Source: Candidatus Curtissbacteria bacterium (GTDB lineage Bacteria; Patescibacteriota; Microgenomatia; Curtissbacterales; GWA2-41-24). Taken from it: a DNA stretch of 41,419 bases. Below the pieces are notes generated by a model. The model made no database searches. It had not been told where the DNA came from and saw nothing but the letters and a program-made list of their open reading frames with translations. The first letter of the stretch is position 1, and each line of letters opens with the position of its first letter. The stretch lies in assembly GCA_030688205.1 (NCBI GenBank), contig JAUYIQ010000056.1:1-41419 (forward strand), read 5' to 3'. Positions 25,529 through 29,931 of this stretch are shown one piece after another. The position numbers were made by a program, and so were the translations under genes.

Positions 25529-28500
25529 CTAGTTTCTATGGGTGACGTATGAGCTCCATGGTAGGGCTTTTAGGTCCTCGAGTTTTTTCTCGGAGATGCT
25601 TCTTGCGAAAAGTTCTGCGGTTTGCATGTTTGTCAGAAGCGGAATGCCAAAATCCACTGTTGTACGTCTTATTACATAGTCGTCGTCAAATTCAGTTTTA
25701 AAGTACGGGTCGACGACGTTTATGACAAGGTCGATTTTCTTTTGAAGAAGATAGTCCAGAACATTTGGTTTTTTCTTTTCGTGGATTTTATGAAGTTTTT
25801 CAGACATAATTTTATGTGAATTTAGAAAAGCTGATGTGCCTTCTGTTGCATATATTTTTAGACCCATTTGATCAAGAATCTTGGCACTTGTGAGGAACTT
25901 CAATTTATTCTCTTCGCCGGCAAGGGAAATAAAAACTGATTTTTTGGGCATTTTTACCCCGGTTGCAATTATGGATTTAAGAAATGCTTCAGAAATATCA
26001 TTTCCAAAACATGCGACTTCACCGGTTGATGACATCTCGACTCTCAGAATCGGGTCTGCGCCTTTCACCCTTGAAAAAGAGAACTGCGGAGCTTTGACAC
26101 CAACGTAAGAAATTCCATTAGTAGCATTGGCAACGTCGCTCGGGGTCCTGTCATCAGTTTCCATCCCGCCAGTGCTCGTCGACTTAACGCTTGATGTGTT
26201 AGGTTGATTCCATTTGGTTGACTGCGCGCTGTCGGGAGCCCTCCCACTGATGCCACCCCTCGCGAGAATTGCTTCAGTTGCGATTTTTACGAAGTTTACT
26301 CCGGTTACTTTTGAAACAAATGGCAGGCTTCTTGATGCACGAAGATTGCACTCAATTACCATTACCTTGTTGTCTTTTGCAAGGAATTGAATGTTGAAAG
26401 GGCCCGTTATTTTAAGAGAGCTTGTAATTTTTTCGGTGATTGCCAGTATTTGCTTTTCTGTTTCGAGATAAATCTTCTGTGCCGGTAGAACCATTGTTGC
26501 GTCCCCTGAATGAACCCCGGCATTTTCTACGTGTTCTGAGATTGCATAGGTTAGCACACTTCCTCTGTTTGCGATGGCGTCTATTTCGATTTCTTTAGTA
26601 TTTTCAAAATACTTTGAGATAACAACCGGATATTTTTCTGAAATGTTCGATGCAAGTTTGAGATAGTTTTTGAGGTCTTCCTCGTTAAAGGCGACATTCA
26701 TTGCTGCTCCTGAAAGAACATATGACGGTCTAACCAGAACGGGAAAACTAACTTTTTGGGCAAAGCTTATTGCTTCTTTTATGTTTTTAAGCATGGCCCA
26801 CGGAGGTTGATCTATTTCCAAAGTATCGCAAAGTTTAGAAAACTTATTGCGGTCTTCTGCCTGGTCGATAGAGCCTGGGCTTGTCCCTAAAATTCTGGCA
26901 CCGGCAGCTGCAAGATCCATCACCAAATTGTTAGGAGTTTGGCCTCCCATTGAAACTATAATGCCTTGCGGGTTTTCCTTTTTGTATATTTCCATAACCG
27001 CTTCTTTAGAAAGTTCTTCGAAGTAAAGTTTTTTAGCCATGTCAAAATCTGTTGAAACAGTTTCCGGATTGCAATTGATGATAATTGGAGAAAACCCAAG
27101 ACTTTGTGCCGTTTGGGCGCAGGTTACGCTACACCAATCAAATTCTACGGAGGAGCCAATTCGGTAAGGTCCGGAGCCAAGAACAATAATAGATTTTGGA
27201 TTTTGGATTTTGGATTTTGGATCTATGTCGTCACAGTCCCCGTTATATGTGAGGTATAGATAATTGGTTTCTGCAGGATATTCTGCAGCAAGGGTGTCGA
27301 TTTGTTTTGCCGCGGGGTGAATGTTAAATTTATGTCTTTGTTCTCTTATGTTTCCTTCAGTGGTGTTTTTTAACTGTGCAAGTCGCATATCGGCGAAGCC
27401 GTATTGTTTTGCTTTTTGCAAAAGTTCTCTGTCCAGTTTGGATTTTTGGATTTCTTTTTCTAAATTAGCGATGTTTTTAATTTTTTCCAGAAAGAAAGGA
27501 TCTATGCCGGTTTTTTTGTATATATCTGGAATTTGTATGCCCGTCTTAATGGCTCTTGCTACGGCGAACAGTCTTGTTGGTGTAGGAGTTTCCCAGTCAT
27601 CTTCCTGATTCTTTTCGTCTAAGAGTCCCGTAAGACCAAGATCGAGCATGCGTACTGCTTTTTGAAGCGCTTCTTCAAACTTTCTTCCAATTGCCATAAC
27701 CTCACCTACTGATTGCATATAGGAGCCTATTCGATAATCGCTTTTTTGGAATTTGCCAAGATCCCATCTGGGGAATTTAACGACTATGTAATCGAGGGCC
27801 GGTTCGAAAGCGGCTGTAGTCTTTTTGGTGACTGAGTTTTTAAGTTCGGTTAAGCCATATCCGAGCCCGAGTTTTGCTGCAATGTATGCTAGTGGATATC
27901 CGGTGGCTTTTGATGCCAAAGCTGAGCTTCTGGATAAGCGGGCGTTGACTTCAATGATACGGTAATCAGGAGAATAGTTGCCAGTATCCAGGGACCAGTC
28001 ATGACTTTTTTTCTTTCCGGTCTCTGGTCTCTGGTCTCTATTTACTGGCTGTGGATTCAAAGCGAATTGGATATTGCACTCGCCTACTATTCCCAAATGC
28101 CTTATTACTTTTATGGCAATTTCCCGAAGCGTGTGATATTCGTTGTTGTTTAGTGTTTGTGAGGGGGCAACTACGATAGATTCACCGGTGTGGATTCCCA
28201 TCGGATCGACGTTTTCCATGTTGCAGACCGTTATGCAGTTATCGTATTTGTCCCGGACTACCTCGTACTCTATTTCTTTCCAGCCGGCTAGGTATTCTTC
28301 GATTAAAACCTGTGGAGATTTGGTAAGCGAACGGGTTATCGCTTCTTCCAAATCATTCATATTTGTAAAGACCCCTGAATCCTGTCCGCCGAGAGAGAAA
28401 GCGCTTCTTACAATAACCGGGAAGCCTATTTTTTTAATTGCTTCTTTGGCTTTTTGAATTGAATGTACGGCAGCGCTTTTTGGGATTGCCAGATCAATAC

Positions 28501-28891
28501 TTTGCAGCATTTTGGCAAAGAGCGCGCGGTCTTCTGTTATTTCGATTGCAGAGATCCCGGTTCCCAGAACTTTTACGTTATATTTTTTCAAAACTCCTGA
28601 TTTTGCAAGAGCAAGGCCGCAGTTAAGAGCTGTTTGACCGCCAAAAGAAAGCAGGATTCCATCTGGTTTTTCGCGCTTTATTACCTCTTCTACAAAGTGT
28701 GGTTCGACGGGAAGAAAGTAAACCTGGTCGGCAAAATCTTTTGAAGTTTGGATGGTTGCTATGTTTGGATTGATTAGAATTACTTCGGCCCCCTCTTCTT
28801 TCAAAGCTTTAATAGCTTGCGAGCCGGAATAATCGAATTCTCCGGCTTGGCCGATTTTCAAGGCACCTGATCCTAGTAATAAAACTTTCAT
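25529..28891 (-). CDS. carB: carbamoyl-phosphate synthase large subunit, with lineage-specific insertions
   Basis: 1120 aa. Two ATP-grasp halves (IEVNARLSRSSALASKATGYPLA; ECNLRASRSLPFVSKVTG). ATGA overlap with carA. Confidence 0.96.
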   Translation of the reverse strand: MKVLLLGSGALKIGQAGEFDYSGSQAIKALKEEGAEVILINPNIATIQTSKDFADQVYFLPVEPHFVEEVIKREKPDGILLSFGGQTALNCGLALAKSGVLKKYNVKVLGTGISAIEITEDRALFAKMLQSIDLAIPKSAAVHSIQKAKEAIKKIGFPVIVRSAFSLGGQDSGVFTNMNDLEEAITRSLTKSPQVLIEEYLAGWKEIEYEVVRDKYDNCITVCNMENVDPMGIHTGESIVVAPSQTLNNNEYHTLREIAIKVIRHLGIVGECNIQFALNPQPVNRDQRPETGKKKSHDWSLDTGNYSPDYRIIEVNARLSRSSALASKATGYPLAYIAAKLGLGYGLTELKNSVTKKTTAAFEPALDYIVVKFPRWDLGKFQKSDYRIGSYMQSVGEVMAIGRKFEEALQKAVRMLDLGLTGLLDEKNQEDDWETPTPTRLFAVARAIKTGIQIPDIYKKTGIDPFFLEKIKNIANLEKEIQKSKLDRELLQKAKQYGFADMRLAQLKNTTEGNIREQRHKFNIHPAAKQIDTLAAEYPAETNYLYLTYNGDCDDIDPKSKIQNPKSIIVLGSGPYRIGSSVEFDWCSVTCAQTAQSLGFSPIIINCNPETVSTDFDMAKKLYFEELSKEAVMEIYKKENPQGIIVSMGGQTPNNLVMDLAAAGARILGTSPGSIDQAEDRNKFSKLCDTLEIDQPPWAMLKNIKEAISFAQKVSFPVLVRPSYVLSGAAMNVAFNEEDLKNYLKLASNISEKYPVVISKYFENTKEIEIDAIANRGSVLTYAISEHVENAGVHSGDATMVLPAQKIYLETEKQILAITEKITSSLKITGPFNIQFLAKDNKVMVIECNLRASRSLPFVSKVTGVNFVKIATEAILARGGISGRAPDSAQSTKWNQPNTSSVKSTSTGGMETDDRTPSDVANATNGISYVGVKAPQFSFSRVKGADPILRVEMSSTGEVACFGNDISEAFLKSIIATGVKMPKKSVFISLAGEENKLKFLTSAKILDQMGLKIYATEGTSAFLNSHKIMSEKLHKIHEKKKPNVLDYLLQKKIDLVINVVDPYFKTEFDDDYVIRRTTVDFGIPLLTNMQTAELFARSISEKKLEDLKALPWSSYVTHRN
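27192..27219. repeat. perfect (GATTTTG)x4 heptamer array inside the carB coding sequence
   Basis: Read on the coding strand as (CAAAATC)x4, encoding DPKSKIQNPKS in the inter-domain linker. Confidence 0.9.
28019..28039. repeat. perfect (GGTCTCT)x3 heptamer array inside the carB coding sequence
   Basis: Coding strand (AGAGACC)x3 encodes RDQRPET, within an ~30-aa insert relative to the canonical F.LNP...IEVN.R block. Confidence 0.9.
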
Positions 28892-29931
28892 TTGAATTGC
28901 TCCATAAAGCGGTCGAATAAAAATTCGGTGTCTTTTGGGCCAGGGTTGTTTTCTGGGTGAAACTGAACTGAAAAAAATGGCAGTTTTTTGTGGATGATGC
29001 CTTCGTTTGTGTTGTCATTTGCGTTATAAAACCAGCGTTTGAAATCTTTGGGAAGTTTTTTTTCGTCAACTGCAAAACCGTGATTCTGGGTTGTAATGTA
29101 GCAGCGTTTTGTCCCAACTTGGATTGTCGGTTGGTTTTGAGCACGGTGTCCAAATTTGAGTTTGTAAGTATCGCCTCCTGCAGCAAGGGCTAAAAGTTGG
29201 TTGCCAAGACAAATCCCGAATGTAGGTATTTTGCGAGAGAGCGATTTTTTGATGATTGCAATTGATTCATCTGCCTTTTTCGGATCTCCGGGTCCGTTTG
29301 AAATCATAAGACCATCAATTGGTAAATTGTTTTCGAAAGGGTCGTAGTTCCATGGAAGTTCGAAAACGGTAGCTTCTCGAGATAGCAAGCTGCGAAGAAT
29401 ATTTTTCTTGGCACCGCAGTTGAGAAGTCCTATTTTTACTCTTCCTCCTTTGTGGATTTTTAAACTTTTTGGTGAAACTTGACTGACTAGGTTTTGTTCG
29501 TTAGGATCTGTGAGTTTGACATCATGGTCTACTACAATTTTCCCGAGCATTACGCCCTTTTCTCGCAGCTTTTGCGTGAGAGCACGGGTATCTATGCCGA
29601 AAATACCTGGGACACCTTCATCTTTTAGCCACTTATCTAATGTTCTTTCCGATTGCCAGTGAGACGGATGGGTTGTAAGGTCGCTTATTACTAGTCCCGC
29701 GACATGGATTTTTTCAGATTCCCAGACTTCTTTTGGCGGAACTCCCCAGTTTCCGATCAGGGGATATGTAAACGTTAGGATCTGTCCCGCGTAAGAAGGG
29801 TCTGTAAGTGAGAGATCGTAGCCAACCATTCCTGTTGCGAAAACGACTTCCCCTGCTTGAGATTTTGGTGCACCGAAGGATTGGCCTTCGAATATTGTAC
29901 CGTCTTCCAGAATTAGTTTGGCTTTTTTCAT
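28888..29931 (-). CDS. carA: carbamoyl-phosphate synthase small (glutaminase) subunit
   Basis: 347 aa. Class I amidotransferase motifs GICLGNQLL and FSVQFHPE. Confidence 0.96.
   Translation of the reverse strand: MKKAKLILEDGTIFEGQSFGAPKSQAGEVVFATGMVGYDLSLTDPSYAGQILTFTYPLIGNWGVPPKEVWESEKIHVAGLVISDLTTHPSHWQSERTLDKWLKDEGVPGIFGIDTRALTQKLREKGVMLGKIVVDHDVKLTDPNEQNLVSQVSPKSLKIHKGGRVKIGLLNCGAKKNILRSLLSREATVFELPWNYDPFENNLPIDGLMISNGPGDPKKADESIAIIKKSLSRKIPTFGICLGNQLLALAAGGDTYKLKFGHRAQNQPTIQVGTKRCYITTQNHGFAVDEKKLPKDFKRWFYNANDNTNEGIIHKKLPFFSVQFHPENNPGPKDTEFLFDRFMEQFK

Follow-up and report, generated by a model that had tools for sequence, protein, structure and literature searches.

How does carB, the gene for the large subunit of carbamoyl-phosphate synthase, come to carry two perfect arrays of seven-nucleotide units within its reading frame? 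One would expect essential genes to be purged of microsatellites with non-triplet units. The gene considered here lies on a 41,419-nt stretch of DNA (contig JAUYIQ010000056.1 of assembly GCA_030688205.1, positions 1-41419, hereafter the window) of a Candidatus Curtissbacteria genome (Microgenomates, Candidate Phyla Radiation (CPR)), which was assembled from short metagenomic reads and comprises 969 kb in 105 contigs, with 40% G+C and an estimated completeness of 87%. A preliminary description of the window, made from its letters alone, had noticed the arrays and left two possibilities: either the repeat-generating process seen between genes also seeds coding DNA and there creates new peptide loops, or carB is switched on and off by slippage. 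Our analysis argues for the former, as the arrays are probably translated, in-frame members of a heptanucleotide repeat population pervading the Curtissbacteria, and hence tolerated passengers rather than a device. The gene and its arrays are placed as follows:

25529..28891, minus strand: carB, carbamoyl-phosphate synthase large subunit, an open reading frame (ORF) of 1120 aa with its frame intact
27192..27222, minus strand: array 1, (CAAAATC)4.4 on the coding strand, 31 nt, perfect (Tandem Repeats Finder)
28019..28039, minus strand: array 2, (AGAGACC)3.0 on the coding strand, 21 nt, perfect (Tandem Repeats Finder)

Two heptamer arrays within the carB frame

Both arrays are real and in frame, as seen in the sequence, by Tandem Repeats Finder and in a second assembly. 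On the plus strand they read gattttg four times followed by gat (4.4 copies, 100% matches) and ggtctct three times (3.0 copies, 100% matches), and their translations, DPKSKIQNPKS (D557-S567) and RDQRPET (R285-T291), are those given in the preliminary description. The start it assigned to array 1, 27192, is likewise correct, but the end at 27219 falls short, as the perfect run extends 3 nt further to 27222. It also rightly pointed out that any change by a single unit is a frameshift, seven not being divisible by three. Such runs are not expected from codon usage: none of 5000 codon shuffles of carB contained a perfect period-7 run of at least 21 nt, the longest run in any shuffle being 20 nt and more than 80% of them not exceeding 13 nt. 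In carB itself, the longest perfect run reaches 31 nt at period 7 versus 10-20 nt at the other periods between 4 and 12.

For a short-read metagenome assembly in 105 contigs, an obvious concern is that the arrays or their copy numbers are low-complexity errors of assembly or binning, repeats being a classic source of such errors. Here, however, the arrays (21-31 nt) are shorter than any read length, the frame of 1120 aa is intact, and same-length counterparts exist in independent assemblies from other genera. Furthermore, a second, independent assembly (GCA_034372645.1, contig JAXMKS010000141.1) aligns to the window without gaps over 3963 nt at 99.975% identity, reproduces the lengths of both carB arrays, and differs within the gene by a single SNP located elsewhere. 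An assembly artefact is unlikely given this agreement; altogether, we regard an artefact of assembly or binning as extremely improbable. Apart from this near-identical sequence, the gene product stands alone, its 90% cluster having one member and the next relative being 77% identical.

Permissive sites in CarB

The arrays had been described as lying where CarB is variable or carries insertions compared with its canonical form, and both the alignment with human CPS1 and a comparison of 64 CarB relatives bear this out. Variation in length is concentrated at three sites, namely the tip of a beta-hairpin in ATP-grasp domain 1 (site 2), the linker preceding the second half of the protein (site 1), and a loop before the C-terminal (allosteric) region (site 3). 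Over the 64 relatives, the site lengths range over 6-70, 12-65 and 15-56 aa (the first range being that of the site-2 loop), while the remainder is highly conserved. Array 1 lies at site 1, in the linker joining the oligomerisation domain to the second synthetase half, where the segment is 5 aa longer than in human CPS1. Array 2 lies within a larger insert at site 2:

27974..28048, minus strand: site-2 insert, aa 282-306, a gap in the alignment with human CPS1

In this alignment, the query proceeds from 281 to 307 while CPS1 proceeds from 695 to 696, so that 25 aa are inserted just ahead of YRIIEVNARLSRS. The position before this conserved block agrees with what had been described, whereas the size of approximately 30 aa had been overestimated.

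An AlphaFold2 model built on the 64 relatives (predicted template modelling score 0.86) places the site-2 insert at the tip of the beta-hairpin formed by strands 270-278 and 310-316 of the first ATP-grasp domain. In the published structure of E. coli CarB, the equivalent hairpin reportedly has the metal ligands on its strands and a turn of four residues at its tip. The predicted local distance difference test (pLDDT) drops below 50 at 291-304 and at 878-923, neither of which shows secondary structure, and is about 75 at site 1. With respect to the earlier suggestion that the inserts are surface loops, the model thus shows site 2 as disordered, and the site-1 linker is modelled with moderate confidence.

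Many of the inserts at these sites display a 7-aa periodicity, as in GNWKLEIGN, STVNCQLSTVN or QRPETRDQRP. At the DNA level, the inserts of 19 family genes match themselves with a frequency of 0.44 at lag 7, 0.40 at lag 14 and 0.34 at lag 21, compared to 0.27 for conserved carB DNA. An alignment of orthologs, suggested earlier as a means to see whether inserts and repeats coincide, hence finds the CarB inserts of the family made of period-7 DNA. When the insert columns are left out of the CarB tree, the insert types come out as polyphyletic, and some of them occupy more than one of the three sites.

The heptamer population of the genome

The carB arrays have abundant company in their own genome (designated G000; C33, C41 and the like are its contigs). 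Genome-wide, perfect arrays of at least three copies number 27 at period 7 versus 9, 1, 6 and 1 at periods 4, 5, 6 and 8, respectively. Perfect heptamer arrays of at least 18 nt amount to 52 and draw on a limited set of recurring units, with AAACTGG, AAGTATC and AAAATTG occurring four times each. While 22 of the 52 are intergenic or located at gene edges and 6 fall where the frame changes or two genes meet, 24 reside in uninterrupted open frames that extend for 40 aa or more to either side. Together with the lag-7 self-match of the inserts, this supports the view that the repeat process operating between genes also seeds coding DNA and there creates loops. Separately, radA was seen to contain an array of the GAAACTT type after its zinc finger (KKLETRNLKLEE; C33:5425-5460).

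That such arrays can break a gene is illustrated by miaA. In this genome, miaA is split exactly at a perfect (CCGTCTA)3.1 array (C44:16057-16078, locus L138): the N-terminal part covers positions 1-177 of TIGR00174 and the C-terminal part, its frame shifted by one, positions 188-286. The gene is intact in five relatives (322-359 aa). At this spot, the congener G001 bears a decayed array that is longer by 14 nt (2 units) and keeps the frame, and in G013 the place is taken by another heptamer array. Among protein records, no near-identical intact MiaA above 69% identity was found, and the truncated product is not on record. Judging from these sequences, whole-unit slippage very probably occurs in this genome. 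The frameshift at the miaA array implies that each carB array is a real frameshift hazard as well; in carB, this hazard is at present unrealised and gives no sign of regulatory use.

These observations bear directly on the second possibility raised at the outset, in which carB, with its role in pyrimidine and arginine precursor synthesis, would be a contingency locus turned off and on within the population by gain and loss of units. The arithmetic of seven and three is in its favour, and the mechanism is known from neuO of E. coli K1, where AAGACTC units leave the gene ON only at multiples of three (PMC3046976); moreover, a heptamer array puts miaA of this genome out of frame, with a whole-unit difference from its congener. 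However, the carB arrays comprise only 3.0 and 4.4 units and lie at codons 285 and 557 of 1120, compared to 2-93 copies near the start of neuO, and carB encodes a housekeeping enzyme instead of a surface or host-interaction function. Array lengths are identical in the two near-identical assemblies, without any whole-unit copy change, and counterparts from other family lineages have inserts of equal length. In addition, reversal of an off state needs a second slippage event of the right sign, which is slow in tracts this short. Switching of carB by slippage is thus very unlikely.

The reading of the arrays as tolerated passengers can be cast as a sequence of steps. Heptamer arrays would enter or grow at the permissive sites by whole-unit slipped-strand events, or else ready-made modules would be imported, which in the case of array 2 may have been a hairpin of two inverted arrays sharing a CCAG/CTGG core. 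Recombination or transposition might carry such modules from one lineage to another. Selection on the essential enzyme would then purge any state that disturbs the fold or has a net length not divisible by three, and the survivors would be hydrophilic, disordered, 7-aa-periodic loops such as RDQRPET or PKSKIQN.

Array 1

Array 1 is not palindromic and looks like an ordinary microsatellite, and RNA folding predicted no structure for it (z -0.62). Its unit recurs at C91:7296-7316 inside an ORF of 996 aa, where it is likewise read as PKSKIQN, and (CAAAATC)n is present in 5 of 32 family genomes. At site 1 of one relative (L101, protein P0019), a counterpart of the same length matches array 1 at 27 of 31 nt, and in relatives closer than this one array 1 is absent. 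Within this decayed counterpart, units 1 and 4 carry the common variant ATCAAAA at a distance of 21 nt, as expected from an in-frame duplication of three units.

Array 2 and the site-2 hairpin

Array 2 has a partner. It forms the left arm of an approximately 70-nt hairpin, the right arm of which is a second, decayed array with period 7:

27973..27998, minus strand: right arm, (CTGGTCC)(CTGGATA)(CTGGCAA)CTAT, decayed period-7 array with a CTGG core, pairing with array 2
27973..28042, minus strand: imperfect hairpin of two inverted heptamer arrays (RNA folding)

The CTGG core of the right arm complements the CCAG of array 2, with an A-rich stretch between the two arms, and the right arm encodes approximately D298-Y306 (DWSLDTGNY). 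In the predicted fold, 4-bp CCAG:CUGG helices recur each 7 nt around an A-rich loop and are closed by AAUAG:CUAUU. At the DNA level, this AATAG...CTATT closes the hairpin, and no target-site duplication was identified. The 91-nt site-2 segment folds with a minimum free energy of -23.9 kcal/mol (z -2.88), and none of 200 dinucleotide shuffles was as stable. Five of six related copies also fold better than shuffles (z -2.4 to -5.4): the counterparts in loci L022, L134, L135 and L136 do so at z -2.4 to -4.1, whereas the L005 copy of the module is no better than its shuffles. The strongest of these hairpins (z -5.4) is intergenic; at C33:5229-5300, inverted CCAG/CTGG heptamer arrays fill the whole gap between an S1-domain gene and radA and end at the radA start codon.

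Further copies of the site-2 type are partial (C41, C50, C61) or located in other genes of relatives. Within its own genome, the right arm is 88-89% identical to intergenic C33:5274-5298 (22/25), C41:4349-4375 (24/27) and C50:1636-1660 (22/25). A composite-pattern search for the module, for which about 1.7 chance matches are expected at its specificity, is only supportive. Across the arrays of the genome in general, reverse-complement matches in the flanks were no better than those of a reversed-sequence control, so that inverted pairing is no general feature and the hairpin is specific to the CCAG-class module. These findings refine our reading for array 2, which seems not to have simply arisen in place, but to be one arm of a hairpin module that is also present in carB of scattered lineages and resembles the intergenic copy.

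With at most one mismatch, (AGAGACC)n occurs in 8 of 32 family genomes; for searches with this unit a reversed control is a rotation of the unit itself, and hence uninformative. Ten (AGAGACC)n arrays of relatives were inspected, and every one lies in an ORF of at least 290 aa and is read in the RDQRPET orientation; the genes include folD-like and Mur-ligase-like ones and another CarB site.

Conservation of the module across lineages

A closely similar module is found in the carB of a relative (L022, genome G034), where the insert has the same total length and contains a perfect ACCAGAG repeat of 27 nt. Array 2 is identical to it at 21 of 21 nt, and is one of only 4 among 1090 seven-codon windows that are fully identical between the two genes. 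This is set against a saturated background, as identity at four-fold sites between the window carB (L001) and L022 is 0.37. Within the hairpin arms, 12 of 12 synonymous third positions agree, whereas about half of the intervening loop has diverged. On the protein level, the RDQRPET...W.L.TGN module occurs in P0001, P0002, P0006 and the clade of P0005, P0007 and P0037, while their sisters have unrelated inserts or a minimal loop. We take this pattern to reflect exchange or retention of the module under some constraint, in which the parts played by recombination, selection on the hairpin and selection on the peptide are not separated by the sequences at hand.

Such conservation is an argument for regarding the site-2 hairpin, and perhaps array 1, as an element kept for its function, be it an RNA or DNA structure within the gene (a pause, processing or protein-binding site) or a functional surface peptide. 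Conserved arms around a divergent loop, the full agreement with L022 in the face of saturation, significant hairpin stability in 6 of 7 copies, the intergenic copy immediately upstream of the radA start, and the single orientation of all ten (AGAGACC)n arrays are what such an element should present. On the other hand, most family members lack the module at site 2 or have unrelated inserts there, and several manage with a minimal loop of 6-10 aa. Since the CCAG/CTGG core is invariant, it offers no compensatory changes; the L005 copy folds no better than its shuffles, array 1 has no structure, and inverted partners are no general feature of the arrays of the genome. Selection against the hydrophobic reverse reading (GLWSLVS) accounts just as well for the bias in orientation, and the test for conservation was post hoc and covered few sites. 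We therefore consider a selected element unlikely.

Even so, several points weigh against the passenger interpretation that we prefer. The arrays may not be neutral, since the identity of the arms despite saturation could reflect selection on the hairpin or on the peptide. A recombination tract would explain the identity with L022 only weakly, synonymous identity being 0.56 in the flanks and 0.45 elsewhere (p = 0.037). Lastly, it does not in itself explain the preference for units of 7 nt or the re-use of identical units.

Gene context and further elements

The gene in which the arrays reside looks functional because its frame is intact, its catalytic motifs are invariant in 64 relatives, and carA is adjacent. 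The product scores 1444 bits against TIGR01369 (cut-off 1027) and 1286 bits against NF003671, and aligns end to end with both human CPS1 (E-value 0) and E. coli CarB (4.5e-244). The neighbouring carA shares 4 nt with the beginning of carB, and gyrA lies upstream:

28888..29931, minus strand: carA, small glutaminase subunit (Pfam CPSase_sm_chain 2.2e-52, GATase 5.7e-53)

At the third variable site, an insert of another kind is present:

26114..26257, minus strand: site-3 insert, aa 879-926, a dispersed, GC-rich element copied in frame, not a heptamer array

This insert, which accounts for the low pLDDT at 878-923, is absent from 18 orthologs. Searches by blastn recovered further copies of the element (about 125 nt) at C86:4643-4758 (76%) and C33:5642-5765 (74%), both in frame in ORFs, the former in an ORF of 285 aa and the latter in radA, after its Walker A motif and in the opposite orientation. 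As RNA, the element folds into one long hairpin whose stability is not above that of shuffles (z +0.28). In other genera, each of the three CarB sites was seen to contain related peptides (GRAPDSAQ...RALAGGK..TGP).

Two further kinds of scattered inserts were encountered in relatives and are absent from the carB of the window. One is a recurrent family containing ...NPKQYQNSNDKNSKRFEHLNLENSDLFRNSDLEIRN..., found at sites 1 and 2 in distant clades, and the other contains SGESTKNSLLEPSMNNSEKAKGKNGW; examples of scattered inserts are sites 1 and 2 of L016 and L018, as well as P0021, P0025, P0038, P0043, P0053, P0072 and P0084. Upstream of the carB of one relative (L135:1-185, a JGI contig), an ORF matches 23S_rRNA_IVP and, more weakly, bAvd, which hints at an accessory gene of a diversity-generating retroelement next to carB.

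With respect to a possible source of movement, the genome has only one match to Y1_Tnp (PF01797), a HUH/RAYT-like ORF of 235 aa with the motifs MPNHFHLL and YIHLNP (C100:234-973, locus L137); upstream of this ORF lies a palindrome whose arms measure 25 nt (ACCAGGTCGGACC...). Its product is at most a candidate mobiliser of hairpin elements. A far-reaching scenario could be built on it, in which the arrays are modules written and spread by a sequence-specific process (a HUH/RAYT-like enzyme, or template-switch repair on CCAG/CTGG hairpins) and kept as hairpins acting in operons, while whole-unit slippage maintains housekeeping genes as a mixture of on and off alleles in a host-dependent CPR population, with miaA off now and carB potentially so. 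We consider this scenario quite unlikely.

Concerning the window as a whole (1-41419), GC skew is positive in nearly all 2-kb bins and reaches up to 0.27. A comparably strong strand asymmetry has reportedly been recorded for one complete Microgenomates genome.

Implications

CPR bacteria are known for odd inserts in their proteins and rRNAs. If our passenger interpretation holds, a whole bacterial lineage tolerates non-triplet repeats in core enzymes and makes surface loops of them that evolve rapidly, which would provide a concrete and datable source of protein insertions in these organisms. At the same time, the repeats constitute a standing frameshift hazard in very small genomes, as exemplified by miaA. 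In practical terms, gene calls and completeness estimates may go wrong in such genomes, and 7-aa-periodic segments can mislead alignments and phylogenies. Finally, the Curtissbacteria offer a tractable system for the old question of why units of 7 bases are favoured in prokaryotes.

Comparison with known systems

A literature search found no paper linking heptanucleotide repeats with CPR or Patescibacteria; among other prokaryotes, three known systems invite comparison. The first comprises the long simple sequence repeats (SSRs) with heptanucleotide units, such as the short tandemly repeated repetitive (STRR) sequences of Calothrix and Nostoc, GGGAATC of Xanthomonas, and TAACTGA of marine Beggiatoaceae (PMC4692102, PMC4679880). 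According to these papers, and to the 2007 survey of SSRs in prokaryotic genomes as summarised in them, such repeats are over-represented in prokaryotes; polymerase slippage has been proposed as their origin, while the preference for seven is unexplained (PMC4692102, PMC4679880). The carB arrays qualify as such repeats, consisting of perfect 7-nt units in at least three copies at lengths beyond chance. The arrays of the genome likewise consist of head-to-tail 7-nt units in few to several copies, many arrays and several units coexist, period 7 exceeds the neighbouring periods, and length and sequence turn over among relatives. In contrast to long SSRs, which are described as overwhelmingly intergenic, about half of the perfect arrays in this genome are in frame inside ORFs, including those of essential enzymes.

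The second system is neuO, an O-acetyltransferase gene of the CUS-3 prophage of E. coli K1, in which (AAGACTC)n, the poly-psi motif, follows the ATG after two nucleotides (PMC3046976). In both neuO and carB, a coding, non-triplet heptanucleotide is read as heptads of amino acids (RLKTQDS in neuO) and the frame is kept only at multiples of three units; the single-unit slipped-strand change that occurs in neuO would likewise be common ground. Unlike neuO, where a long tract at the 5' end of a capsule-modifying gene causes phase variation at high frequency, the arrays in carB are situated in the middle of a core enzyme and are invariant between two assemblies.

The third comparison is with the Rickettsia palindromic elements (RPEs) and other in-frame, intragenic miniature inverted-repeat transposable elements (reviewed in PMC10969869). 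The site-2 module, and even more so the site-3 element, is reminiscent of these in being a dispersed, hairpin-capable element inserted in frame in unrelated housekeeping genes, with a translation compatible with the fold; for site 2, the hairpin is more stable than shuffles, and dispersed copies occur both in frame and between genes. Unlike RPEs, which form families of about 150 bp with a conserved peptide, the site-2 module measures only about 70 nt and is built of two inverted heptamer arrays, and array 1 is a plain microsatellite.

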